A stretch of 64,000 nucleotides of DNA from contig JBBSAV010000001.1 in the NCBI GenBank assembly GCA_038251965.1, positions 28,627-92,626 on the forward strand, read 5' to 3'. Position numbers and translations under genes: made by a program. The stretch's first letter is position 1; every line of letters begins with the position of its first letter. Source of the DNA: Candidatus Limnocylindrales bacterium. GTDB lineage: Bacteria > Chloroflexota > Limnocylindria > Limnocylindrales > CSP1-4. The notes beneath the pieces are model-generated. The model was not told the origin of the DNA and did not search any database. It was given only the letters and a program-made list of their open reading frames with translations. Below are positions 1 to 58,739 of this stretch, piece after piece.

Positions 1-1269
1 CGGACGCACCCGGGCTGGGTGGCAGTGGGGCTCTTCGTGCTTGCGGCCCTCGTGTACTTCAGCTCCAACCCGGGCCGGACGGACTTCTACGATCACTTCG
101 TCTGGCAGGCCGATGCCTTCCTGCACGGCCGGACCGAGATCGCCTACCCCGTCAGCGACGGCCCCTACCGCAACGACTACTTCCAGGACGTGCTGCCGAC
201 AGCTTCCGACCGGGCGCAGGTGCCGTTCCCGCCGCTACCGGCCATCATCCTGCTGCCGTTCGTGGCCGTCTGGGGCCTCGGCACCAACGCGGCGGCTGTC
301 GCTGCAGCCTTGGGAGCGCTCAACGTGGCCCTGTGCTGGTGGATGCTGCTGGCGGTCACGCCGCGCCGCGCCGCGGTGCTGCTGGGCACGCTGTTCTACG
401 GCTTCGGCACCGTGGCCTGGTACGCGGCCATGTTGGGCACGACCTGGTTCCTGGCGCACGTGGTGGCGTCGACCTTCCTCTTCATCGCCATCGGGCTTGC
501 GGTTCGCGCCGAAGGACACCGCGCCGTCGGCCGCAGGTTCGTGGCCGGGCTCGCGTTCGGGACCGCCGGCGTCGCCCGCCTCACGACCATCTTCGGGGCA
601 CCATTCTTCGTGTTCGTCGGCGCTGGAGGGTCGTGGCCACGGCGTGCCCTGAGCGCCGGGGCCGGGGCGCTCCTCCCGGTGCTCCTCCTGCTCGGCTACA
701 ACCTCGTCACCGCGGGGTCGGTGTTCCATCCTGCCTATGACTATCTCTACGAGGTCGAATATCGGCCTCGCCCTGAGCTGGTGAACCCTGGCTGGTCGAT
801 CGAGGATCCGCGCTACATCCCCCAGAACGCCGGCATCATGCTGGCCCAGTTGCCCAGGATGCCGCTGCTCGACGACCCCGCCTGCGCCTCCGATGGTGTC
901 GCTGCCGGATCACTCTTCGACCCTGAGTGCGCGCTGCTCCAGCCGGACCCCATCGGCATGAGCATCCTGCTCACCAGTCCCGCCTACCTGTTGATGATCC
1001 CCGTCCTGCTGTGGGACTGGCGCCGCCGCCTCGTGGCAGGAGCAGCGTTGGCGGCGCTTTCGATCGCCCTGGTCGACCTGATGCACTTCAGCCAGGGTTG
1101 GGTCCAGTTCGGCTACCGCTTCAGCAATGACTTCGCCCCCTTCGCGGTCGTCCTCGTGGCGCTCGGTATCGCCCGTCTGGGCGTGGGCGTCAGGTCGGTG
1201 GGCTTGGTGGCTGCCTCGATCGCGGTCAACGCCTGGGGTGTCTTCTGGGGCGTGACATTGGGGTGGTGA
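1..1269 (+). CDS. GT-C-fold polytopic membrane glycosyltransferase (PMT_2/ArnT-like); 5' end probably outside window
   Basis: ORF 19..1269 has no in-frame stop back to the window start. It has a multi-TM hydrophobic profile and a first-loop acidic/aromatic motif YDHFVWQADAF. It overlaps the next GT gene by 7 nt (GTGGTGA). Confidence 0.55.
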   Translation, partial: RTHPGWVAVGLFVLAALVYFSSNPGRTDFYDHFVWQADAFLHGRTEIAYPVSDGPYRNDYFQDVLPTASDRAQVPFPPLPAIILLPFVAVWGLGTNAAAVAAALGALNVALCWWMLLAVTPRRAAVLLGTLFYGFGTVAWYAAMLGTTWFLAHVVASTFLFIAIGLAVRAEGHRAVGRRFVAGLAFGTAGVARLTTIFGAPFFVFVGAGGSWPRRALSAGAGALLPVLLLLGYNLVTAGSVFHPAYDYLYEVEYRPRPELVNPGWSIEDPRYIPQNAGIMLAQLPRMPLLDDPACASDGVAAGSLFDPECALLQPDPIGMSILLTSPAYLLMIPVLLWDWRRRLVAGAALAALSIALVDLMHFSQGWVQFGYRFSNDFAPFAVVLVALGIARLGVGVRSVGLVAASIAVNAWGVFWGVTLGW

Positions 1270-2780
1270 GGTCCACAGAAGGCGGAGTGACCCGCTATGC
1301 CCTCGCCGCGCTGCCCGTCTTCGGCGTGGCCCTGGTGCTCTACGCCCGCACCCTGCTGCCGGACGTGGGCCTATGGGACACCGCCGAGTTCCAGGCCATC
1401 GGCACCACGCTGGGGGTCGCCCACCCCACCGGCTACCCGACCTACACGCTGCTGGCCTGGCTGGGCTCGGTGGTGCTGGCGCCGCTGGGCACCGCAGCCT
1501 ACCGGGCCGACCTGCTCTCAGCCCTGCTGATGGCCGGGGCCGCCGCCCTACTGGCAGTCACCACGGTGCAGGTCACGCGGCGCTGGCCCATCGGCCTGCT
1601 GGCGGGCCTGACCTTCGCGCTGACACCCGTGGCCTGGCAGTGGGGGCAGCGCGCCGACCCCCACGCACTGCATGTCTTCATGGCGGCTTTGCTGCTGGTG
1701 CTGCTCGGCGCCTGGGCTGGTGGCCGGGAGCACGACCCGCGCCGCGCCTCGCGCTGGTTGGTCGCTGCCGCCTTCGTGTTCGGCCTCGCGTTGGGCAATC
1801 ACGCCCTGACGTTGTTGCTGGTGCCCGGAATCGCTGCCTACGTCCTGCTGGTCGCGCCTCGCATCCTGTGGCGGCAATGGTGGCTGGTGCTGCTGTGCGT
1901 CGCGGTGATCGCCCTCAGCGCCACCTTGGTCTACCTCTATCTGCCGCTGCGCTCCGCCATGGACCCGCCGCTCGACTATGCGGACCCCGACACCTGGGAC
2001 GCCTTCTGGTATGTCGTCCTGGGCGAACAGTTCCAGGGCTCCTTCGGCCCACTGCCGACGCTCGCAGACATCGTCGCCGGCATGGGCAGCGAGCTGGGCC
2101 GCAACCTCGGGCTCCTCTCGATCCTGGCCGTGTCGGGCGCGCTGGTGGGGCTGGTGCGACACCCCCGCCGCACCGTGCTTTCGCTGCTGTGGTTCGGCTG
2201 TACATGGATCTTTGCCATCGGCTACCCCAACGCCGCCATCGAGCGCTACTACCTGGTGCCGCTGCTGATGGCGGCGCTGTGGGTCGGGCTGGCCGCCGAC
2301 GCTGCCGCAGATACCCTCCGTGGGCTGCTGCAGCGGTCTGCCGGGACCATCCTGGCGAAGGTGCTCGGTGGGACGCTGCTGGCCATCTTGCTGATACTGG
2401 CAGTGATTCCTGCCGCGAACCGCTACGACGACCTCGATGCCTCTGCTGACACCTGGGGCCGGCAGATCATCGAGACCACGTTCAAAGCCCTCGCGCCCGA
2501 TGCAGTCGTCCTCTCGTGGTGGTCATTCTCCACGCCCCTCTGGTATGGCCGCTGGGTGGAGGGCCGGCGCGAGGATGTCACCATCATCGATGACCGTGAC
2601 GTCCTCGACGATGGACTGGGTAGCGTGGAGGCCGCCATCGAGCGCTACCTCGACGAGCGACCCGTCTACCTGATCCGCCTTGACCAGGATCTGGACGCCC
2701 TCCGCGAGCGCTATGAGCTGGAGCTCGTGCCGGCGGTGGCGACCGAGCTCTACCGCGTGGTGGCGCGCAAGACCGAGTGA
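1263..2780 (+). CDS. DUF2723 / TMEM260-like GT-C membrane glycosyltransferase
   Basis: N-terminal signature GLWDTAEFQAIGTTLGVAHPTGYPTY typical of DUF2723; ~10 predicted TM helices followed by a soluble C-terminal domain. Confidence 0.65.
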   Translation: MVRSTEGGVTRYALAALPVFGVALVLYARTLLPDVGLWDTAEFQAIGTTLGVAHPTGYPTYTLLAWLGSVVLAPLGTAAYRADLLSALLMAGAAALLAVTTVQVTRRWPIGLLAGLTFALTPVAWQWGQRADPHALHVFMAALLLVLLGAWAGGREHDPRRASRWLVAAAFVFGLALGNHALTLLLVPGIAAYVLLVAPRILWRQWWLVLLCVAVIALSATLVYLYLPLRSAMDPPLDYADPDTWDAFWYVVLGEQFQGSFGPLPTLADIVAGMGSELGRNLGLLSILAVSGALVGLVRHPRRTVLSLLWFGCTWIFAIGYPNAAIERYYLVPLLMAALWVGLAADAAADTLRGLLQRSAGTILAKVLGGTLLAILLILAVIPAANRYDDLDASADTWGRQIIETTFKALAPDAVVLSWWSFSTPLWYGRWVEGRREDVTIIDDRDVLDDGLGSVEAAIERYLDERPVYLIRLDQDLDALRERYELELVPAVATELYRVVARKTE

Positions 2781-2804
2781 AGCGTGTGGCCCTAGGATTG
2801 GTGC

Positions 2805-3644
2805 GTGCCTGAGAACCGCGACCTCCCTCGCCCCGTCGAACCCGCACGCGTCGAGGCGTTGAGCTACTTCTTTCCTGCCCACGATGAGGCGGCCAATATC
2901 GAGGCCCTCGTGGAGGAGGCGCGAGCAGAGCTGCCGCGCCTGGCGGCGCGCTTCGAGATCATCGCCGTCGACGACGGCAGTACCGATGGCACAGCTGAGA
3001 TCGCCGACCGTTTGGCGGCGATCTACCCGGATGTCGTCCGTGTGGTGCATCACCACGTCAACCAGGGGTATGGCGCGGCCGTGCGTTCCGGGCTCGCCGC
3101 CGCGCGCTATCCGCTGATCTGCTTCACCGACGGCGACCGGCAGTTCCGCATCGCTGACCTGGCGCGCCTGACGGCTCGTCTGGAGGGGGCGGCGGATACC
3201 GCAGCACCCGCGGATGATGCAGCACTCCCGGACGTCGTGGTCGGCTACCGCATCGAGCGCGCCGACCCGGCCATCCGCCTGGCCTATGCGCGAGCCTACC
3301 GCTTCGCCCTGCGGCTCTTCTTCGGGCTCGCGGTACGTGATCCCGACTGCGCCTGCAAGCTCTTTCGACGAGAGGCACTCCAGGACGTTCGCGTCGAATC
3401 CGGTGGCGCCTTCCTGTCGGCTGAGCTACTCATCAAGATCGGCGCCGGTGGCGCGGTCATCGCCGAAGTGGGTGTGCCGCACTACCCGCGCACGGCCGGC
3501 ACGGCCTCGGGCGCGGATCCGCGGGTAGTCTTGCGTGCCGTCAGGGACTTCTGGGACCTGCGCCTGCGCCTGTGGGCGAACCGTGCCTCCGCCCTGCGGC
3601 GCGGCATCCCCATCCTGGCAGATGAAGGCTCCGGGCCGCCCTAA
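2805..3644 (+). CDS. GT2 polyprenol-phosphate sugar synthase (DPM1/PpmA-like)
   Basis: GT2 motifs: AHDEAANIE, IAVDDGSTDGT, QGYGAAVRSG, FTDGDRQ. Lies immediately downstream of the two GT-C genes. Confidence 0.8.
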   Translation: MPENRDLPRPVEPARVEALSYFFPAHDEAANIEALVEEARAELPRLAARFEIIAVDDGSTDGTAEIADRLAAIYPDVVRVVHHHVNQGYGAAVRSGLAAARYPLICFTDGDRQFRIADLARLTARLEGAADTAAPADDAALPDVVVGYRIERADPAIRLAYARAYRFALRLFFGLAVRDPDCACKLFRREALQDVRVESGGAFLSAELLIKIGAGGAVIAEVGVPHYPRTAGTASGADPRVVLRAVRDFWDLRLRLWANRASALRRGIPILADEGSGPP

Positions 3645-4252
3645 TGGTCCTCACCATCGTCGCCCAGTCGGTCGTCGAGAGGGCGCTCGTCCGGATCCGG
3701 CGCGCCGGGGACGGACCCTCCCCCCGATGGTCCCGCAGGGGGCGTAGGGGGCGTAGGGGGCGTCCCGCTCCCCTCACCTGATCCCGGCTCGAGCGAATTG
3801 ACGAACTCACGAAAGACGCTGAGCTTCTCGTCCTCATCCGCCTCGGGGATGACGCCGGCCCGATCAAGCACCGCCTCGGTGGCGAAGATGGGTGCGGCCA
3901 CCCGCACGGCCAGCGCGATGGCGTCACTGGGCCGCGCATCGATCTCGAAGTCGCTGCCGCCCTGGACAAGCACGATGCGGGCCCGAAAGGTCTCGTCGGC
4001 CAGGTCGGAGATGAGGACGCGGCGGACGCTGACGCCCAGGTCCGAGAGGATGGTCGTCAGCAGGTCGTGGGTGAGCGGTCGCTCAGCCTCTACGCCCTGC
4101 AGCTTCATGGCGATCGACTGCGCCTCCCAGCTACCGATCCAGATGGGCAGGTAACGTTCGTCGTCGGCTTCGCGCAGGATGACCACGTGCTGCGACGAGA
4201 GCATGTGCACGCGCACACTCTCCACGACCATCTCCCGTGCGGCACCCGTCAT
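3641..4252 (-). CDS. bifunctional nuclease family protein (DUF151/BFN) with Pro/Thr-rich acidic C-terminal tail
   Basis: Core matches the BFN family (LPIWIGSWEAQSIA...ARPSDAIALAVR). The tail PPTPPTPP is encoded by a 3x tandem 9-bp repeat. Confidence 0.7.
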   Translation of the reverse strand: MTGAAREMVVESVRVHMLSSQHVVILREADDERYLPIWIGSWEAQSIAMKLQGVEAERPLTHDLLTTILSDLGVSVRRVLISDLADETFRARIVLVQGGSDFEIDARPSDAIALAVRVAAPIFATEAVLDRAGVIPEADEDEKLSVFREFVNSLEPGSGEGSGTPPTPPTPPAGPSGGGSVPGAPDPDERPLDDRLGDDGEDH

Positions 4253-4338
4253 GCGCTGATTCTAGCGGTGTGCCCGCAGGCCGCTGGGGCGCCCCCGATA
4301 CCGACGAGCCGACCCCTACCCGCGAGTCGGCGACGCTG

Positions 4339-6459
4339 TCAGCCGACCTCGAGCTTGGTCCGGTAGATCGCCTCAGGAGTGACCCACATGAGCGTGTCGT
4401 CCTTGCGCTTGCCCTTCTTCGTCGTGCCACCCTCGATGATGTACATGCCGCGTACGTCTTCCATCTCGCCGCCATCGCCGGCCGGCAACCACTGGCCGAC
4501 ATAGCCGCCATCGACCTTGTCGAAGCCGACGATCCGCCCATGGAGCGCGTCGTAGAGATATACGCGGCCGTCGGTGTTGGCCCGTCCTGATCCATCTACC
4601 AGGCGGTAGTCGTGGCCGGGCCGCAGGTCGGCATCGTCGGGTGGCGTGGCGATGGCGAATGTGCCGTCGTAGCGCTCGTACCTGTAGCGCCGCAGCTTGT
4701 TCTGGAACAGGGCATAGACGTCGAAATCGATATAGAGCGCCTCGAAGTCCGCCACCTCCGACGCCTGCGAAGCGAGGTATGGGGAGGGCTCCTGGAAGGA
4801 GCTGCCGTCGAAGGTCTGCTGGTAGCGCATGATCTGGTTCAGCGAGGGCTCGGCCACATACATGCGGTACTGGCCCACCGCAGGATCGTAGGCCTCCACG
4901 TCGCCGTGGTCGGCCTCGAAGCCGGAGCGACCCTGCAGCGACAGCTGCACCAGCGTCCCGGCGCCCGCGGAGTTGGACGGCCGCCAACGCCAGGGCCGGG
5001 CCTTGTCGTCGACGATCACCACGTCCGGACCGGCGGCAGCAAGCTGGACAGGCTCACCTATGGCGCGGTTGCTGTTCCCTTGCTTGTCGCCTTCGTGGAC
5101 GATGGCTGCGATCTTGCCGTTCTTGGTATTGGCGCGAAAGACCGTCCCGCTGGAGCGGTCGATGTAGATGGCGCCGTCGTTCAGCCCTTCGACGAGATAG
5201 GCCGGGTCGGAACCCTCCGGCAGACGGGCGATGCGTTCGATGGTCGGGTGGTGCGCTCCGTACAAGGTGTCAAGGCCGGCCCGGACGCGCGTCTCCAGCT
5301 CGTCGAGCGCCGGAGCGGCCAAGCCGGTGTCCCGTGCCTGCTTGACCTCGGTCCAGGCATCACGGTAGTACGCAAGGGCGGTGTCGGGCTCCGTCGTCAG
5401 CAGGTTGTCCGCCCGGTTGACGTAGTCGAGCGCTGACCCCAGCGCGTTGTCGGCTTCGGCGTAGATGGGTACCTCGTTGACGTCGCTACCGCGCGGCACC
5501 AGCACCAGCACCAGGCCGACCACGAAGACGACCACGAGGAGAGCCAGCAGGCCCATCGCGGCGCGGCGCTGGTTCTCGGCACGCGAAGTCGTGGCGGTGA
5601 CCTCTTGCGCGCGCGCGTCTCGCCTGGGCATAGCGTCCCAGAAGCGGTCGCGGACGGAGTCGATGACGTCACCGATACCGACCCGGGAGGCGGTCGCGGT
5701 CCCGTTCATCGAGGCGGCCGCGGCACCGGGCAGATCACCGTAGGCATCTCCACCCGTGGGTGCGATCCCACCCTGGACCCGGGAAGATCGCTCACGGGTC
5801 TCGACCGCGATGAGGCCATCGGAACCGGAGCCCCCAGCGGCCACGAAGAGGTGGTGGAGGTGGTCGACGGCGGCCTGTGGATGCAGGGTGAGGATGGCGC
5901 TCTTGAGCTCCTCGGTCCCGACCGTCTCGGTCATGTTGCGCGACACCAGCAACAGGCCGTCGCCCGGGCTGAGCTCTCCGCGCCAGACAGCGACCGAATT
6001 GATCTCGTCGCTGGGCAGTCCCGCGGGCGCGCTGCGATCGGGCATGAGCAGACGGGCCGCTCGCACCAGGTACGCCTCGGCCGATCCGAGCGTGGCGAGG
6101 TAGAGCTCATCGTTGCGGATGACAGCCGCGGCGACGCCGAGCGATCCTGGAGAAAGGCTTGCTCCTTCGCGACCGCCGCGCAGGCGTCGGTCGGCACTCT
6201 TGACAGCCTTCTCCAGGCAGACCGGCACGCCGGCCGACTCGTCGTAGTAGTACTCGTGCCGAATGGTGTCGGCAACGAGCCTGGTGGCCTCCCGGGCGTA
6301 CGGTCCCGGGATGGTCGAGCCGACAAGGATGAAGAGCACGCCCTTGGAGCGGGTCTTCGATCCGGTGGTCGGCCGGGTCACGCTGAGTGTGTCGGCTGAA
6401 GACGGAAGCCGGTCCCGCTCGCCGATCGATCCATGCGTGATCTCGAGTCGGGTAGCCAT
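4339..6459 (-). CDS. PstP-like membrane protein: degenerate PP2C (probable pseudophosphatase) domain + 1 TM + ~390-aa extracytoplasmic repeat domain
   Basis: N-terminal ~230 aa align by eye to bacterial PP2C blocks (LYLATLGSAEAYLVR ~ GDSRxYLLR; GDGLLLVSRNM ~ DRYLLCSDGL; GGSGSDGLIAVE ~ GGPDNVTVVV). Three of the four metal-ligand Asp residues are replaced: ADGMGG becomes LVGSTIPG, GDS becomes GSA, SDG becomes SRN. Single TM helix AMGLLALLVVVFVVGLVLVLV. C-terminal domain with recurring Y-x-D/G-rich beta-strand-like repeats. Confidence 0.6.
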   Translation of the reverse strand: MATRLEITHGSIGERDRLPSSADTLSVTRPTTGSKTRSKGVLFILVGSTIPGPYAREATRLVADTIRHEYYYDESAGVPVCLEKAVKSADRRLRGGREGASLSPGSLGVAAAVIRNDELYLATLGSAEAYLVRAARLLMPDRSAPAGLPSDEINSVAVWRGELSPGDGLLLVSRNMTETVGTEELKSAILTLHPQAAVDHLHHLFVAAGGSGSDGLIAVETRERSSRVQGGIAPTGGDAYGDLPGAAAASMNGTATASRVGIGDVIDSVRDRFWDAMPRRDARAQEVTATTSRAENQRRAAMGLLALLVVVFVVGLVLVLVPRGSDVNEVPIYAEADNALGSALDYVNRADNLLTTEPDTALAYYRDAWTEVKQARDTGLAAPALDELETRVRAGLDTLYGAHHPTIERIARLPEGSDPAYLVEGLNDGAIYIDRSSGTVFRANTKNGKIAAIVHEGDKQGNSNRAIGEPVQLAAAGPDVVIVDDKARPWRWRPSNSAGAGTLVQLSLQGRSGFEADHGDVEAYDPAVGQYRMYVAEPSLNQIMRYQQTFDGSSFQEPSPYLASQASEVADFEALYIDFDVYALFQNKLRRYRYERYDGTFAIATPPDDADLRPGHDYRLVDGSGRANTDGRVYLYDALHGRIVGFDKVDGGYVGQWLPAGDGGEMEDVRGMYIIEGGTTKKGKRKDDTLMWVTPEAIYRTKLEVG

Positions 6460-6471
6460 GAGTGCCCTAGT

Positions 6472-6816
6472 CTAGCGTGGCCGCCCCGAATCCCCGCGGC
6501 GCGACCCCCTTACGATCACCTGCAACTCCAGCAGTCGTCGTCCACCGGGCGCCGAGGCGAAGGCTTCCAGCAGGTCGGCCGAATAGAGGCGCAATTCCTG
6601 GCCGGTGGCAGCATCATCAGCAGAGACCAGCAGGGTCGGCGGACGTACCTCCAACAGCTGCGACGCACCTGCCGCGGGCGGCACCAGCTCTTCGACGATA
6701 CGGATCCAGGAGGACATCGCCCGAGCCGCGCGCAGCTCCTCGTCAAGGCCAAGCTGGGAGGCGATACCGGGCAGCAGATCAGCGAGTCTGTGGACCGGGC
6801 GCCTGCGCGAAGTCAT
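6472..6816 (-). CDS. dciA: DciA (DUF721) helicase-operator-like protein
   Basis: DUF721-like sequence directly after recF. Start trimmed to the ATG that forms an ATGA overlap with the recF stop. The longest ORF would reach 6867. Confidence 0.7.
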   Translation of the reverse strand: MTSRRRPVHRLADLLPGIASQLGLDEELRAARAMSSWIRIVEELVPPAAGASQLLEVRPPTLLVSADDAATGQELRLYSADLLEAFASAPGGRRLLELQVIVRGSRRGDSGRPR

Positions 6817-7979
6817 CGGTTGCCCGGTGTTCCGACGAGGCTGACGCTGCCGTGCTCGACCTGCCACAGCGTCGAAGCGGCCACCAGGGCCGGGTCGAGG
6901 TCAGCAGGCGTGGTGGTGGTGACGATGGCCTGCGGCAAGCTGCCGATGCGGCGCACGAGGTGAGAGCGCCGCATCGGGTCCAGCTCGCTGAAGACGTCAT
7001 CGAGCAACAGCAGCGGGGGGTGGCCGTCGAGCGATGTCAACAGGTCCAGCTCGGCCAGCTTCAGGGCAAGGATGGCGGTGCGCTGCTGTCCACGCGAAGC
7101 GAACTCGGTCAGCTCGCGGCCGTCAGCGATGAAGACGAAGTCGTCACGGTGCGGTCCCACCAGCGTGGCACCGTTCCACACCTCCTTGTCAGCCGTCTCG
7201 CGCAGGCGTCGACGCAAGGCGTCCCGGACCCGTTCACCCACGATAGCCTCCACGTTCGAGCGGTAGTGCAGGGCGAGCCCTGGTTCCTCGGGCGCGATCT
7301 CGCGGTGGGCCTCAGACAGTGGCTCGGCGAGTGCCGCCATCGTCTCGTGGCGCCAATCGAGGATCTGGCCGCCGTTCTCCACGATGAGCGAATCCCAGTA
7401 GGAGAGCTCGGCGCGATCGGCCTGTTCCTCGCGGATGCGTCGCAACAGCGAGTTTCGTTGCGTGAGGGTTCGCTGGTAGGTGGACATCACGGCCGTTGCC
7501 GTCGGCTCACGCTGGCCGACCAGTGAATCGAGCAAGCTTCGCCGTAGCGAGGGCGTGCCCACGATGAGCAGCATGTCCTCGGGCGCGAAGAGCACCGTTC
7601 GCAGCATCGAGCGCAGCGCCGCAGGGCGACGATTGACGCCGTTCACGCGGATCCGTTTGCGGGCGGCACCTGCATCCGAACTCCTGGCGTGAACCACGAC
7701 TTCCAGCTCCTCTGTGCGATCGCCGACATCGACCTGACCTGAGACGCGCGCGAAATCAGCGCCCCAGCGGACCATCTCGGGATCCACGGAGCTGCGGTGC
7801 GAGCGGCCCGACGAGAGCAATACCAGCGACTCGACCAGGTTGGTCTTGCCGGCGGCGTTGCGCCCCACCACCACGTGGGGGCCAGCGCCGAACTCGACCT
7901 CAAGATGCCGGTAGCTGCGGAAGCCGTCGAGCGTCAGTGTTCGGACCGGCATCAGACGGCGACCAAGGCCTGGCCGCAC
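6813..7979 (-). CDS. recF: DNA replication and repair protein RecF
   Basis: Walker A GRNAAGKTNLVESL; SMC-like architecture; follows dnaN. Confidence 0.95.
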   Translation of the reverse strand: MRPGLGRRLMPVRTLTLDGFRSYRHLEVEFGAGPHVVVGRNAAGKTNLVESLVLLSSGRSHRSSVDPEMVRWGADFARVSGQVDVGDRTEELEVVVHARSSDAGAARKRIRVNGVNRRPAALRSMLRTVLFAPEDMLLIVGTPSLRRSLLDSLVGQREPTATAVMSTYQRTLTQRNSLLRRIREEQADRAELSYWDSLIVENGGQILDWRHETMAALAEPLSEAHREIAPEEPGLALHYRSNVEAIVGERVRDALRRRLRETADKEVWNGATLVGPHRDDFVFIADGRELTEFASRGQQRTAILALKLAELDLLTSLDGHPPLLLLDDVFSELDPMRRSHLVRRIGSLPQAIVTTTTPADLDPALVAASTLWQVEHGSVSLVGTPGNR

Positions 7980-8010
7980 GCGGCCGTGCTCGTGTCTCGC
8001 GCCGTGTCGG

Positions 8011-9132
8011 TCAGGAGGGTGTGCGTACCGGCATGATCACATGCACATAAGCCGGGTCGTCCACTGGCTTCAGCACACCCGGCGCAAGCGGGCCACTCAA
8101 CTCCACCGCCAGTTGCTCGCCATCCATGTTCTGCAGCGCTTCCACCATGTAGCGGGCGTTGAACGCGATGGTGACCGGGTCACCTTCCAGCTGCGCATCG
8201 ACGCGTCCCTCGGCATCACCCACGTCCGCCTTGGCGTTGACGGCGATCGACTCGGGCGCCTCCTCCTCTCCGAAACCGAGCCGCACGACATTGGCTGATG
8301 AGGAGGCGATGAGCGCGGTCAGTCGAACAGCCTTCAACAGCTCATCACGATCGACCAGGGCACGGGTGCTGTGTGATGTCGGCAGCACCGACTGATAGTT
8401 GGGGAACTGGCCGTCGATCAGCCGACTGACGATCTCGGTCGTGTCGACCCTGAAGATGACCTGATTCTTGGCCTGGGCGAGGATGATATCGACCGGCTCC
8501 TCGCTGTCGCCGAGCACACGCATCAGCTCGACATAGGAGCGTGCCGGGACCACCACGCTGGTCTCTTCCACCGACTGCATCAGCTCAAGCGTCTTGACCG
8601 CGATGCGGTAGTTGTCAGCTGCGGCAAGCGTCAGGACCTCACCGGAGAGCTTCGTCAGCACACCGGTGAGGATCGGACGGGTCTCGTCAGCAGCAGCGGC
8701 GAACGTGACCTCGGCCAAGGCACGCCGCATGGCCTTCTGGCTCACCTGGGTGGTGGGACGGTCGCCGGCGGCAGGGATGACCGGGAACTCCTCAGCATCG
8801 ATGCCACGCAGACGTGACTTGTAGTTGCCGGAACGGATCAGGAGCGTGTTCTCCTTCTCCATCTCCAGGTCCACTCGCTCACCGGCCGGCAGTCCTCCGA
8901 CCACGTCGGTGAGGAGGCGAGCCGGCACGGTCATCGTGCCATCGGTGTCGATCTTCCCCGGCACCCACACCGAGATGCCGATCTCAAGGTTGGTGGCGGT
9001 GAGGCGGAGGCCACCGTCCTGGGTCTTCAGCAGGACGTTGGCAAGGACTGGCAGGGTCGCCCGACTGCTGACGGCGCGGGCCACGTGGGACAAGCCCCGG
9101 GCCAGGTTCTCTTGCATCAAGGACAGCTTCAC
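8011..9132 (-). CDS. dnaN: DNA polymerase III beta sliding clamp
   Basis: 373 aa with N-terminus MKLSLMQENLARGLSHVARAVSSR typical of DnaN; downstream of dnaA. Confidence 0.95.
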   Translation of the reverse strand: MKLSLMQENLARGLSHVARAVSSRATLPVLANVLLKTQDGGLRLTATNLEIGISVWVPGKIDTDGTMTVPARLLTDVVGGLPAGERVDLEMEKENTLLIRSGNYKSRLRGIDAEEFPVIPAAGDRPTTQVSQKAMRRALAEVTFAAAADETRPILTGVLTKLSGEVLTLAAADNYRIAVKTLELMQSVEETSVVVPARSYVELMRVLGDSEEPVDIILAQAKNQVIFRVDTTEIVSRLIDGQFPNYQSVLPTSHSTRALVDRDELLKAVRLTALIASSSANVVRLGFGEEEAPESIAVNAKADVGDAEGRVDAQLEGDPVTIAFNARYMVEALQNMDGEQLAVELSGPLAPGVLKPVDDPAYVHVIMPVRTPS

Positions 9133-9935: not shown

Positions 9936-11324
9936 CTACTTGTCGGAGTAGATCGACTCCCGGACCGCGGCAAGCTCGCGTCGCAACTCCTCGTTGCGAG
10001 ATGCCTCTTGGTCGATCTTCTTGCAGCCGTGCAGGACCGTGGAGTGGTCCCGTCCGCCCAGCTCGGCGCCGATGCGCAGCAGTGATACATCGGTCTCTTC
10101 CCGCATCAGGTACATGGCGATCTGGCGCGGCACGACGATGGCGCGGTCACGCTTCTGGCCTCGCAGCGCGTCCAGCTCCACGTCGTAGTAGTCCGCTACC
10201 GCGATGGCGATCCGCTCTGGTGTGATGGCGCGTTTGCGCGGGCTGTAGAGCACGTTCGAAAGGACGGCTTGTGCCAGGTCGACGCTGATGGGCATGCCCT
10301 GCATGGAGGCATAGGCGACGATGCGATTGAGCGCGCCCTCAAGCTCCCGGATGTTGGACGCGACCTTGCGGGCGATGAACTCCAGTGCGTCAGAGTCGAC
10401 GCGCACACCCTGCTCCTCCGACTTGGTGCGCAGGATGGCGATGCGGGTCTCCAGGTCGGGCGCGGTGAGGTCGGCGATGAGTCCCCACTCGAAGCGGCTG
10501 CGCAGTCGCTCTTCGAGCGTGACGATCTGCTTGGGGGGCCGGTCGCTGGAGAGCACGATCTGCTTGCCGTCCTCGTGGATGGCATTGAAGGTGTGGAAGA
10601 ACTCCTCCTGCGTGCGTTCCTTGTCGGCGATGAACTGGATGTCGTCGATCAGCAGCAGGTCGATCTTGCGGTAGCGCGCACGGAAGCCATCGATGCGCCC
10701 CTGCTGGATGGAGGTGATGAAGTCGTTGGTGAACTTCTCGCTGGTGGCATACACGACTCGCTTTCGCGGAAAACGCTGCGCGACCGCATTGCCGATCGCA
10801 TGCATGAGGTGTGTCTTGCCCAGTCCGACCCCGCCATAGAGGAAGAGCGGGTTGTAGGCCTCGCCCGGACGCTCCGCGACCGACAGGCTGGCCGCATGCG
10901 CCAAACGGTTGGCCGAGCCCACGATGAACGTGCGGAACGTATAGCGTGCATTGAGGTTGACGCTCCCACCCTCCGCGCCGCCCACACGGCCTGGCTCCAC
11001 ACGAACCTTGGGGCTGCGTGCCGGAGGTGCTGCCTTTTGCGGCGCGCGCGGTGCAGGCGCCTCTGCCTCCTCGGGCTCGGGATCGAGGATGTCGAACTCG
11101 ACATTGACGCTGTAGCCCACGATGCGTGCGAGGGTCTGTGCGATCAGCGAGCGATAACGGTTCTCCAGCCAGTCCTTGGCGAAGCCGTTGGGTGCTCCGA
11201 CGCGAAAGAGGTCTCCGTCGACATCGACGAGGGTCGTGTCCTTCAGCCAGGTTTCGTAGTTGGCCGGGGACAGCGACACCTGAAGCTCACCGAGAGTGGC
11301 TCTCCAGACCTGTTTTGCGTCCAT
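9936..11324 (-). CDS. dnaA: chromosomal replication initiator DnaA
   Basis: AAA+ Walker [11 protein letters not shown], DnaA signature and C-terminal DNA-binding domain. Start set at [11 protein letters not shown] (conserved DnaA N-terminus). The longest ORF to 11672 would add a non-conserved 116-aa extension. Confidence 0.93.
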
Positions 11325-11717
11325 CGATGGCAACGTGACCCGTATTACGACACGACTTTGCGCTTGGCGGTGCGAATGCCCTCCGAGACACTCCACGCTG
11401 AGGCGCGATCGATACTCCTGGAGGGAACCGGCCCGAACCCTCTCCGGACGTTGTGGCGGTGACTCCAGACTACATCTCCGAGCCCTTCGAAGGGCGCCGG
11501 GGCGGCATACGTTAGCACCGCGTTTCCCGACTGTGCAACGTCCATTGGGCATACCCCCAGGGAGTATCGTTCCCGGCCTTGCCCGAGACTGCCGACAGCG
11601 CCCCGACGTAGCGGTCGACCCCGTACGGGGGTGCCGCCGGAGGCCATCGGGTGGTGGCAGGACGCACCACATATCACTGACCGGCAGCCTCTCCGCACGC
11701 GGCTGCGGCGCATCGGA

Positions 11718-53614: not shown

Positions 53615-55922
<2,308 letters not shown>

Positions 55923-55963
55923 GTTCCATGAGCCAGCCGCTCCCGACCGGAGGGTCCTAGGCC

Positions 55964-56392
55964 GTGCCCCTGTTCTTGGAGATCGTCACGCCCGAGCGCC
56001 AGGCGTACTCGGACGAGGTCGACGCGGTCTTCTGTCCCGGGATCGAGGGTGAGATCGGCGTCCTGCCGCACCATGCACCGCTGCTGTCGACCCTTGGTGT
56101 GGGCGAGCTGCGCATCCGCAAGGGCAGCGACGAGGAGTATTTCGCCATCGCCGGTGGCTTCGTGCAAGTGCGCCCGGACAAGGTCGTGGTCATGGCAGAG
56201 CTGGCCGACCTCTCCTCGGAGATCGACCTCGAAGCCGCTGAGGAGGCCCGCAGTGAGGCTGAGCGAGCCATCAGGGCCGGCTTCGACGAGCCGGCCGACC
56301 TGGCGCGCGCTCGGGCCTCGATGGAACGAGCGCTCCTGCGGATCCGCGTGGCCGAGCGCCGGCACCGCGAGGGCCCCCGCCAGCGCCGATAG
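55964..56392 (+). CDS. atpC: ATP synthase F1 subunit epsilon
   Basis: Beta-sandwich plus helical hairpin; final gene of the atp operon. Confidence 0.9.
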   Translation: MPLFLEIVTPERQAYSDEVDAVFCPGIEGEIGVLPHHAPLLSTLGVGELRIRKGSDEEYFAIAGGFVQVRPDKVVVMAELADLSSEIDLEAAEEARSEAERAIRAGFDEPADLARARASMERALLRIRVAERRHREGPRQRR

Positions 56393-56416
56393 CCGCGATG
56401 GCTGAGACTTAGCGCC

Positions 56417-57739
56417 ATGGCAGCGACTCGGCCCTTCCACTGGGAGTACCAGGCCCCGCCGGTGCGGCAGGAGACCATCCGCATCGAGGGTGGAGTGCCG
56501 TTGCGTGGCGAGGTACCCATCAGTGGCTCCAAGAACGCAGCCCTCAAGCTGCTGGCAGCCGCCACGCTGACCGGCGAGCGCTGCCGCTTTACCAACGTGC
56601 CCCAGATCGATGACGTCACGCTCATGACGGAGGTCCTGAGCGATCTCGGTGTCGTGGTGGATCATCCCGAGCCCAACACCTACGAAGTCTCGGCCGGCGA
56701 CGTGGACTGGCTCTTCGTGCCACTGGAAGCGGCCGCCAGGATGCGTGCCAGCTTCATCCTGCTCGGCCCACTGCTGGCCCGTTTCGGTCGCGTCATCATC
56801 AGCAACCCCGGCGGCGACCGCATCGGCCGTCGCCCGGTCGATCTGCACGTCGAAGCCATGCAGGCGCTGGGCGCCACCATCGACTACCGCAACGGCTACT
56901 ACTTCGCCCAGGCACCGGGCCGTCTGCGCGGCGGCGACATCGTCTTCCCGCACGTCACCGTGATGGGCACGGAGAACGCCATCCTCGCCGCGACACTCGC
57001 TGACGGCCACACCACCATCCGGCCGGCGGCACGAGAGCCGGAGATCGACGACCTCATCGGATTCCTGCAGGTGATGGGCGCTGAGGTCGAGCGTACCGCG
57101 CCTGACGTCATCGAGATCGAAGGTCGTCGCCGACTCCGCGGCGCCACGCACCACGTCGTGGCCGATCGTATCGAGGCTGGCACATTCGCCGTCGCCGCTG
57201 CGGTCACCGGAGGTGAGATCACGCTGCGTGGTGCGCCGTCGGCACATCTGGGCGCGTTCCTGGATGTCCTCACCGAGATCGGCGTCGGCGTCAGCGGAGC
57301 GGATGACCGCATCACCGTGAGCGCTGCCGAGCCCGGAACCTACCACGCCACCGACATCACCACGGCCGCCTATCCGGGCCTTGCGACCGACCTGCAGCCG
57401 CCCACCGGGGTCCTGCTGACGCAGGCGCGCGGCCGCAGCACCGTCCACGAGACCATCTATGAGGACCGCCTGGAGTGGCTGACAGACCTGGCGCTCATGG
57501 GTGCACAGGCGGAGATCCAGGATGCCCATCACGCGGTCATCAGCGGGCCAGTCCGCCTGCAGGGTGCGACCGTGGAAGTCGGTGACCTTCGTGCTGGCGC
57601 CTCGCTCATCCTGGGTGCCCTGGCGGCGGATGGCCAGTCCACCATCCGTGGTGTGCACCATGTCCGTCGCGGCTACGAGGGCATCGAGAGCAAGCTGCTC
57701 GACCTGGGTGCGAGTATCGAACCGGATCCCGAGCGCTAG
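56417..57739 (+). CDS. murA: UDP-N-acetylglucosamine 1-carboxyvinyltransferase
   Basis: EPSP synthase fold, [14 protein letters not shown]. Confidence 0.95.
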
Positions 57740-57749
57740 GGCTGCGGGG

Positions 57750-58739
57750 ATGAAGATCGGGATCGATCTGGGCACGGCCAACGTGCTCGTCTATGTCAAA
57801 GGCAAGGGCATCGTCATCCGCGAGCCCTCGGTGGTGGCCGTCAGCGAGAGCCACCACATCCTCGCCGTCGGCGAGGAGGCGCGCGAGATGATCGGCCGGA
57901 CACCTGACAACATCTCCGCCATCCGACCCATGAAGGATGGCGTCATCGCCGACTACGTCATCACCGAGGCGATGCTGCGCTACTTCATCCGCAAGGCCGG
58001 CCGCAGCTTCACCAAGCCGGAGGTCATGGTTTGCGTGCCATCCGGTGTCACCAGCGTCGAGAAGCGTGCCGTACGCGACGCGGCACTCAAGGCCGGCGCT
58101 CGCGAGGCCTACCTCATCGAGGAGCCCCTGGCGGCTGCCATCGGCGCCAACGTGCCCATCTCGGGTGCCTCGGGAAACATGATCATCGATATCGGCGGCG
58201 GTACCAGCGAGATCGCCGTGGTGGCACTCGGTGGCATCGTCGTGAGCCGCTCGCTGCGCGTCGGAGGGAGTCGCTTCGACGAGGCCATCACCAGCTACAT
58301 CCGACGCAAGTACAACCTGATGATCGGCGAGCGTACCGCGGAGGAGGTCAAGATCGCCATCGGCACGGCCCTGCCGCTCGAGCGTGAGCTGACGCTCGAC
58401 GTCCGAGGCCGAGACCTCGTGGCGGGACTGCCGCGGACCATCCCGCTGACCAGCTCAGAGGTCATGGAAGCCATGGAGAAGCCCCTGCAGCAGGTCGTGA
58501 CCGCGGTGCGTGCGGTGCTCGAAGAGACCCCGCCGGAGCTCGCCAGTGACATCATCGACAAGGGCATGGTCATGACGGGAGGTGGTTCGCTGTTGCGCAA
58601 CATGGACCGCCTCCTGACGCAAGTCACCGGTGTGCCCTGTCACGTCGCCGAGAATGCGCTCAACTGCGTCGCCTTGGGCACCGGCCTCGCCATGGAGCAT
58701 TTCGAGTTCTTCAAGGCATCACTCGTACAGAAGCTGTAA
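57750..58739 (+). CDS. mreB: rod shape-determining actin homologue MreB
   Basis: [22 protein letters not shown]... Start trimmed from the longest ORF, which begins at 57501. Confidence 0.95.

Follow-up and report, generated by a model that had tools for sequence, protein, structure and literature searches.

A predicted lipid-linked-sugar glycosylation operon beside the replication-origin genes of a Limnocylindria bacterium

We analysed a 64,000-nucleotide (nt) stretch of DNA from Candidatus Limnocylindrales bacterium (contig JBBSAV010000001.1, positions 28,627 to 92,626), here called the window, in which positions 1-3644 are occupied by three co-directional plus-strand open reading frames (ORFs), g1, g2 and g3. 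We estimate a probability of about 0.6 that the g1-g2-g3 operon provides a lipid-linked sugar and consumes it in glycosylation reactions at the outer side of the cytoplasmic membrane. We infer the general mechanism from the families to which the proteins belong. In outline, g3, a peripheral glycosyltransferase (GT) of family 2 (GT2) without transmembrane (TM) segments, would load polyprenyl phosphate (Pren-P) with a hexose from a nucleotide sugar at the cytoplasmic face, GDP-mannose and hence mannose being the most likely. The lipid-linked sugar would be flipped across the membrane by a flippase. The products of g1 and g2, two unrelated enzymes of the GT-C membrane fold, would then transfer the sugar to extracytoplasmic acceptors, each by means of an acidic residue in its first external loop (loop 1). 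The candidate acceptors are inositol-phospholipid glycolipids or glycans for g1 and protein Ser/Thr for g2. The genes and their main motifs, with lengths in amino acids (aa), are as follows.

1..1269, plus strand: g1, predicted polytopic membrane protein of GT-C fold from an orphan family, ~451 aa at full length, 5' end cut by the window (19(1)..1269 in the ORF list, the frame being open to base 1)
82..189, plus strand: first extracytoplasmic loop of g1, DFYDHFVWQADAFLHGR...YFQD, which holds candidate catalytic acidic residues
1084..1131, plus strand: C-terminal signature of g1, HFSQGWVQFGYRFSND, with the family-invariant G395, G400 and R402, plus D406
1263..2780, plus strand: g2, 505 aa from GTG 1263
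1374..1391, plus strand: catalytic-loop motif WDTAEF (within GLWDTAEF) of g2, whose D39 aligns with D52 of human TMEM260
2805..3644, plus strand: g3, 279 aa
3129..3143, plus strand: DGDRQ (DxDxQ) nucleotide-sugar- and metal-binding motif of g3 (D109-G-D111-R-Q113), aligned with DADLQ of ArnC
3339..3359, plus strand: DPDCACK acceptor-side motif of g3, aligned with the DYGCMLR segment of ArnC

The three-gene arrangement described in the initial annotation of this DNA was confirmed, and its order is kept in 77/77 related loci of sufficient length. Because of this conserved order, and because each gene has hundreds to thousands of homologues, g1-g3 are not chance ORFs. The reading frame of g1 is open back to base 1 and full-length homologues are 451-463 aa long, the closest being P0001 at 94% identity, so about 29 N-terminal codons of g1 lie outside the window. 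The distance between g2 and g3 was measured as 24 nt, as annotated. The 7-nt overlap claimed for g1 and g2 holds only if g2 begins at its most upstream start, GTG 1263. An alternative start, GTG 1266, gives a classic 4-nt GTGA overlap with g1, and the NCBI, ENA and Logan gene calls place the start at GTG 1287, giving a protein of 497 aa and a 17-nt gap after g1; a 497-aa homologue, P0390, is 100% identical to g2. The g1/g2 spacing is operon-like under each of the three starts. At its 3' end g3 has a 4-nt convergent overlap with a minus-strand gene for a bifunctional-nuclease protein. Homologue names and a genome scan place the host in the Chloroflexota, class Candidatus Limnocylindria, and the relatives are all uncultured metagenome-assembled genomes; bacteria of this kind are uncultured inhabitants of soil and freshwater.

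Gene linkage was followed in 80 loci from species-representative genomes, in which identity to g1 ranged from 100% down to 46%. In all 77 of the Limnocylindria loci extending far enough, g3 came directly after the g1 block. g2 was present in 58 of the 77 (57 on the same strand and one inverted) and absent from 19 (~25%). In 15 of the 19 loci without g2, g3 followed g1 immediately; in the other four (L028, L029, L032 and L040), a minus-strand g1 paralogue of ~412 aa filled the slot between g1 and g3, for example:

L028:9423-10955, minus strand: g1 paralogue in the g2 slot
L032:9357-10595, minus strand: g1 paralogue in the g2 slot

The paralogues carry the motifs ADAFLHGR, PYPPMPA and QFGYRFSxD(xAP). 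Since g3 follows g1 in 77/77 loci and g2 is missing from 19, the conserved core consists of g1 and g3, with g2 as an accessory enzyme.

The case for a lipid-linked sugar begins with g3, which matched the GT2 family PF00535 at 1.3e-25. In searches of the PDB, ArnC was matched at 7.7e-8 by the single sequence and at 2.7e-12 by a profile, and the profile also matched the dolichyl-phosphate mannose synthase (DPMS) of Pyrococcus (PfDPMS) at 8.6e-10. The ArnC and DPMS alignments span g3 aa 14-229, whereas the other GT2 enzymes in the profile search matched only aa 6-116, the N-terminal nucleotide-binding half. The NCBIfam matches covering most of the protein were dolichyl-P hexose transferase, ArnC and AglJ; all 18 NCBIfam matches fell far under their cutoffs (50 vs 422 bits for the best, and 44 vs 375 for dolichyl-P hexose transferase). 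An AlphaFold2 (AF2) model of g3 (pLDDT 80, pTM 0.80) gave ArnC, GtrB and PfDPMS as the best 16 Foldseek matches (E 1e-13 to 1e-10; query TM-score, TMq, 0.61-0.69), with PcManGT and GpgS next (~4e-10, TMq 0.51-0.57). Further, the DxDxQ motif is invariant in 78/78 related loci, and the acceptor-side motif is kept as D[PVI]D[CG]A[CFY]K in 74/74. Sequence profile and predicted fold together support the grouping of g3 with the Pren-P glycosyltransferases. They bear out the annotation of the GT2 as a Pren-P-sugar synthase type, and neither the profile nor the Foldseek comparison grouped it instead with enzymes acting on UDP-sugar rather than Pren-P acceptors.

Hydropathy gave no TM segment in g3, which is without the C-terminal TM hairpin of the subtype formed by ArnC, GtrB and archaeal DPMS. 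Pren-P synthases of the TM-less subtype, such as human DPM1 and the catalytic domain of actinobacterial Ppm1, need a membrane partner, and it is this subtype that g3 resembles rather than GtrB or ArnC. Two conserved helices predicted in g3 (156-173 and 239-258), rich in Arg and aromatic residues, are candidates for the amphipathic juxtamembrane helices with which enzymes of this kind hold Pren-P; by a simple calculation their hydrophobic moments are 0.76 and 1.24, values that are not distinctive relative to those of core helices.

The assignment of g2 as a DUF2723/TMEM260-like protein with a GLWDTAEF motif also stood. The motif is present, g2 matched PF11028 (TMEM260-like/DUF2723) at 2.2e-27 (96.4 bits vs a gathering score of 24.2), and human TMEM260 (PDB 9rql), an IPT-domain protein O-mannosyltransferase, aligned at E 2e-20 over the whole transmembrane GT-C module (g2 aa 16-444 vs 29-465). 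g2 keeps D39 (equivalent to D52), a Glu three residues on, and the AHP(T/P)GYP motif, and the D52A mutant of human TMEM260 is inactive (PMC10214176). In related loci the WD[TW][AG]E core, including the catalytic Asp, and the downstream AHP(T/S)G(Y/F)P motif are kept in 61/61. The two proteins differ in size (707 aa for TMEM260 vs 505 aa for g2) and in that g2 has no C-terminal TPR domain: no TPR Pfam match was obtained, and the protein ends ~60 aa past the TMEM260-aligned region. The luminal TPR domain at the C terminus of TMEM260 is thought to select the IPT-domain substrates. By its sequence, then, g2 is in the PF11028 family and not of metazoan architecture; as a bacterial enzyme, its donor would be a Pren-P-sugar and not dolichyl-P-mannose. 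JGI labels homologues of g2 'ArnT-like'. In the library searched, the human TMEM260 paper alone mentions DUF2723, consistent with the annotation's remark that bacterial DUF2723 enzymes are essentially uncharacterised.

One homologue, P0476 (793 aa, from a 153-kb ENA contig), was considered as a natural DUF2723-GT2 fusion, that is, as Rosetta-stone evidence, and was discounted. An Arg/Pro-rich, out-of-frame-looking stretch stands at the junction in place of the conserved g2 C terminus, and judging from this sequence the apparent fusion most likely stems from a frameshift or from faulty assembly.

g1 is the least familiar of the three proteins. A Pfam search gave 0 matches, neither phmmer nor a 56-sequence profile gave a sequence match in the PDB, and no g1 homologue has a Pfam domain, every named one being called 'hypothetical'. 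The absence of a GT87 Pfam match for either g1 or P0001 means that g1 is not PimE (GT87) by sequence. Among 30 diverse members of the g1 family, PMT_2 was weakly matched in two and GT87 in one. The sole curated match of g1 itself was to NCBIfam NF047440, the LA_3751/LA_3752 family of putative glycosyltransferases from Leptospira, which covers the conserved N-terminal GT-C core (aa 28-236); at 31 bits vs a cutoff of 200 the match is too weak to make g1 a member, and NF047440 is itself uncharacterised. With nothing significant from Pfam, NCBIfam, the PDB phmmer and profile searches, or hhalign, the attempt to tie g1 to a known GT-C family by sequence was given up, and the GT-C assignment rests on fold.

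For the fold, we used an AF2 model of full-length P0001 (pLDDT 88.8, pTM 0.89). The model has ~12-13 TM helices. Its first external loop is structured, and the second is long and carries two invariant cysteines. All of its best 25 Foldseek matches in the PDB were of GT-C fold (probability 0.94-1.0), 22 being entries for GT-C enzymes and three for PIG-U, a non-catalytic subunit of the glycosylphosphatidylinositol (GPI) transamidase. The matched proteins were STT3/OST, PimE (ranked second, TMq 0.37), AftA, Pmt4, PglB, EmbA/B/C, GPI-MT-I, DPY19 and PIG-U, and unrelated transporters ranked below the GT-C entries, at probability <=0.13. On this model g1 very probably has the GT-C fold. The claim that gene 1 encodes a GT-C protein is thereby supported, and neither HMM searches nor structure prediction indicated a non-GT membrane protein.

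The conserved residues of g1 are compatible with an active site. In P0001 numbering, D92 (nt 187-189) was invariant in 56/56 close homologues, and the position was D or E in 29/30 distant ones. D60, which is D in 53/56 close homologues, starts the loop-1 helix, the canonical position, comparable to D58 of PimE; D58 is the catalytic residue of PimE (PMC12041525). G165, R222, G395, G400 and R402 are invariant throughout the family, and H182, Q398 and D406 are kept in 27-29 of 30 diverse members. A pattern made from the C-terminal signature retrieved at least 560 genomic and at least 576 metagenomic relatives, and a search of 1.84 billion cluster representatives (50% identity) gave 2,154 for the family at E<=1e-3.

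The DNA upstream of g1 was read in a 94%-identical relative, L082, with a 21-kb locus; a 9.2-kb contig with an identical g3, L001, starts inside g1. Two features occupy this upstream DNA:

L082:1-4799, upstream of window position 1: gene set resembling early synthesis of phosphatidylinositol mannosides (PIM), consisting of Ino1, two PatA-like acyltransferases, a PHP hydrolase and a PimA orthologue
L082:4796-9967, minus strand: 1723-aa fusion protein, divergent from g1 with ~33 nt between

In the first set, myo-inositol-1-phosphate synthase (Ino1, PF01658) is accompanied by two HtrB-family acyltransferases that match PatA, the acyltransferase of PIM synthesis, better than anything else. They matched NCBIfam PRK07920 at 2e-30 and 5e-28 (106 and 98 bits, below the cutoff of 209) and the PDB entries for PatA, 5f2t/7ojt, at E ~1e-8. 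The PHP-domain hydrolase is possibly a phosphatidylinositol-phosphate phosphatase. The family 4 glycosyltransferase of the set matched mycobacterial PimA (2gej/4n9w) over its full length at E 4e-56, the next structure being at 4e-24, and by these sequence scores it is clearly a PimA orthologue. In the 1723-aa protein, an N-terminal polytopic module (aa 1-470) matches PF06728, PIG-U, of the GT-C clan, at 9e-7. The remainder is an enzyme of the protein O-mannosyltransferase (PMT) family, GT39 (PF02366, PF16192), with its TM core at aa 1021-1484. Its loop-1 DE motif, YFDEVYH (~aa 562), is split from the core by a ~440-aa soluble insertion in which no domain was recognised.

The L082-type upstream arrangement is kept in nearly all Limnocylindria loci with enough flank. 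The initial annotation had seen in g1-g3 the minimal logic of a glycosylation pathway; the combination of a synthase with GT-C transferases stands, but the three genes are not self-contained: they make up the right end of a conserved locus of larger extent. A distant sample consisted of 80 metagenomic loci (L083-L162) with g1-family members at 29-43% identity, on short contigs. In 33/80 of these there was a homologue of the N-terminal GT-C module of the 1723-aa protein, the immediately divergent neighbour in 17. This suggests a GT-C/GT-C pair, of the g1 family and the N-terminal module, conserved well beyond the Limnocylindria, and makes another GT-C, one lying outside the window, the most persistent partner of g1.

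The wider locus, because it encodes Ino1, PatA-like proteins, PimA and the double GT-C/PMT protein, resembles the actinobacterial system dependent on polyprenyl-phosphate mannose (PPM), which makes PIM and lipomannan and O-mannosylates proteins, and in which Ppm1 is found with PimE, MptA/B and Pmt, and with ino1, patA and pimA. In both, a TM-less GT2 of the Pren-P-sugar-synthase type lies beside GT-C transferases; the PimA orthologue, PatA-like acyltransferases, Ino1 and PMT (GT39) are neighbours in the relatives; and PimE ranks second among the fold matches of g1. The differences are several. The host here is of the Chloroflexota and not the Actinomycetota, g1 is not a GT87 protein by sequence, and g3 reaches no Ppm1-type equivalog. 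There is a DUF2723 enzyme, none having been characterised in the actinobacterial pathway, the PMT, interrupted by the ~440-aa insertion, forms one protein with a second GT-C module, and no phosphatidylinositol synthase was seen within reach of the locus. A literature search on PIM or PimA in Chloroflexi and on envelope glycosylation in Limnocylindria found nothing relevant.

Mannose is favoured on two grounds. To our knowledge, characterised PMT (GT39) and TMEM260 enzymes all use dolichyl-P-mannose or polyprenyl-P-mannose (PMC10214176, PMC12041525; also established knowledge), so the members of these two neighbouring families that have been studied transfer only mannose. The second ground is that PimA, PatA and Ino1 represent early steps of PIM synthesis. 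PPM-dependent GT-C enzymes, fed by Ppm1, complete the PIM pathway in actinobacteria (PMC12041525; also established knowledge). As to acceptors, g1 is more likely directed to a glycolipid or glycan because it is small and without a soluble domain, like PimE and PIG-M, and g2 and the PMT fusion would be the candidates for protein O-mannosylation; the protein mannosylation suggested in the initial annotation is thus one acceptor scenario among several. Folds, families, conserved motifs and gene linkage come directly from the analysis; the sugar, the acceptors and the sharing of one pathway by all these proteins are points that we infer from such comparisons. In sum, an actinobacteria-like, PPM-dependent envelope glycosylation locus is the best reading by analogy, with sugar and acceptors putative.

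Other systems share parts of this design. The three-component systems GtrA/GtrB/GtrV, ArnC/ArnEF/ArnT and CsbB/GtcA/YfhO likewise encode a Pren-P GT2 together with a GT-C protein, and ArnC and GtrB were the best fold matches of g3. They differ in that no GtrA- or ArnE/F-type flippase gene is present here, g3 has no TM hairpin, and two GT-C modules, or four with the upstream gene, share one synthase. Eukaryotic DPM1 with POMT or TMEM260 follows the same logic of a Pren-P-sugar synthase plus a GT-C transferase. The operon logic is thus already textbook. What differs here is the orphan GT-C family, for which no curated model exists, the TPR-less bacterial TMEM260 homologue, the TM-less synthase lacking a flippase gene in its vicinity, the four GT-C modules around this one synthase, and the PIM-like genes in Chloroflexota.

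Several observations weigh against a PPM-dependent glycosylation locus. By sequence, g1 has no link to any curated GT family, and the hhalign comparison of its family with that of g2 (DUF2723) gave a probability of 1.5%. The TMq values of the P0001 fold matches are moderate (0.37-0.52), and D60 varies in the g1 family beyond the close homologues. The sugar specificity of g3 cannot be read from its sequence, because no NCBIfam equivalog cutoff was approached. The PIM-like neighbours were seen in relatives and not in the window itself, and no GtrA-type, ArnE/F or GtcA flippase was found among the called genes of the 21-kb L082 locus or window positions 1-9000. The oriC-proximal region, recF and dnaN included, is syntenic as a whole across the class, so synteny alone, partly a matter of phylogenetic inertia, is weak evidence of function. 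In the distant sample a full-length g3-like GT2 lay within reach in only 8/80 loci. Five of the eight are 38-46% identical to g3 and near g1-family genes or the partner GT-C (two of the five loci, L114 and L115, being identical), and in L114 and L161 the g3-like gene is directly upstream of the partner GT-C gene; the link of g1 to a g3-type synthase recurs, but in a minority of distant contigs. Finally, the functions given for g1-g3 are predictions from sequence and fold.

These doubts give room to other explanations. The same architecture might serve a sugar other than mannose and a cell-wall polymer target, as in Gtr/Arn/CsbB-YfhO-type systems. In that case g3 would make polyprenyl-P-glucose, -N-acetylglucosamine, -N-acetylgalactosamine or an aminoarabinose-like product, and g1 and g2 would decorate wall polysaccharide or a surface-layer glycan. 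The GT2 plus GT-C pairing is a hallmark of these systems (established knowledge), and the best PDB matches of g3, ArnC (for 4-deoxy-4-formamido-arabinose, Ara4FN) and GtrB (for glucose), come slightly ahead of DPMS. The partial NCBIfam matches, which include PpgS along with the halobacterial dolichyl-P hexose transferase and AglJ, and the 'ArnT-like' label of g2 homologues, can be read in the same way. We nevertheless think a non-mannose system unlikely, since the mannose-only record of PMT and TMEM260 enzymes and the mannolipids indicated by PimA, PatA and Ino1 speak against it, as do the lack of a GtrA-like flippase gene in the locus and of an ArnC/GtrB-type C-terminal hairpin in g3.

That g3 has no TM helix and invariably adjoins g1 raises the question of whether g1 is an enzyme at all. 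It might be a non-catalytic, PIG-U-like anchor or activator of g3, as Ppm2/D1 is for mycobacterial Ppm1 and DPM3 for DPM1, leaving g2 and the upstream PMT fusion as the transferases. PIG-U structures are among the fold matches, the family-wide variation at D60, the canonical apex position, fits such a role, and Ppm1/Ppm2 is a precedent for a membrane-protein gene beside a soluble-type PPM synthase (established knowledge). However, g1 keeps the acidic D92, the invariant R222 and R402, H182 and D406 at 28-55% identity, a pattern like that of an active site. In some genomes the slot of g2 is taken by paralogues, which fits enzymes that differ in their acceptors, and a g3-like gene is missing from the neighbourhood of most distant g1-family members; an anchor role thus seems improbable to us. 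Still less probable, in our judgement, is that g3 is a soluble enzyme of GT-A type that glycosylates a small molecule, like glucosyl- or mannosyl-3-phosphoglycerate synthase (GpgS, MpgS), and that its place beside GT-C genes is merely inherited order. The missing TM helix and the synteny of the entire oriC-proximal region would be accounted for, and GpgS and MpgS are among the fold matches (E ~4e-10), with NF010496 (GpgS) at 4.3e-10. The GpgS sequence matches, however, cover only g3 aa 17-111, in the nucleotide-binding half, whereas ArnC and DPMS align over aa 14-229. Further, TMq is 0.53-0.57 for GpgS vs 0.61-0.69 for the Pren-P glycosyltransferases, with higher root-mean-square deviation. 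The conserved Arg- and aromatic-rich helices and the occurrence of g3-like genes in operons with GT-C genes in unrelated lineages (L114, L161) also argue against a soluble enzyme.

Among the features that follow g1-g3 in the window are these:

3641-4252, minus strand: bifunctional-nuclease-domain protein (PF02577) with a Gly/Pro/Thr-rich C-terminal tail, GTPPTPPTPPAGPSGGG
4339-6459, minus strand: 706-aa protein with a central hydrophobic stretch
6472-6867, minus strand: dciA
6813-7979, minus strand: recF
8011-9132, minus strand: dnaN
9936-11672, minus strand: dnaA
16403-17383, plus strand: long ORF of 326 aa, putative gene, no Pfam match at E<=1e-5
55883-57781, minus strand: long ORF of 632 aa, putative gene, no Pfam match at E<=1e-5

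The operon is oriC-proximal, ~6 kb from the replication-origin gene cluster. Nothing in Pfam or NCBIfam matched the 706-aa protein significantly, PP2C-like and PQQ_2 hits being below threshold; the protein adjoins the operon in every related locus reaching that far (33-96% identity). Housekeeping genes (dnaA, jag, secA, gyrA/B, PBP2, atpA) account for the large ORFs beyond 9 kb, and among those scanned there were no further glycosylation genes.

A fuller version of the PPM-dependent reading, which we hold only tentatively and think rather doubtful as a whole, is that Limnocylindria build inositol-phospholipid mannosides or lipomannan as well as O-mannosylated proteins by means of g3 and the four GT-C modules, with g1 founding a new family of glycolipid-elongating glycosyltransferases and g2 being the first bacterial TMEM260-type protein O-mannosyltransferase. 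The g1 family numbers ~2,150 cluster representatives at 50% identity, belongs to no Pfam or NCBIfam family and includes no protein that has been studied; its activity, if true, would add a glycosyltransferase family. Loss of TMEM260 causes a human congenital disorder, and the compact, TPR-less bacterial g2 could help dissect the TMEM260 catalytic core. A PIM-like, PPM-dependent locus, if true, would extend an envelope chemistry regarded as actinobacterial to an abundant uncultured class of Chloroflexota, and it is relevant to the composition of the Chloroflexota envelope.

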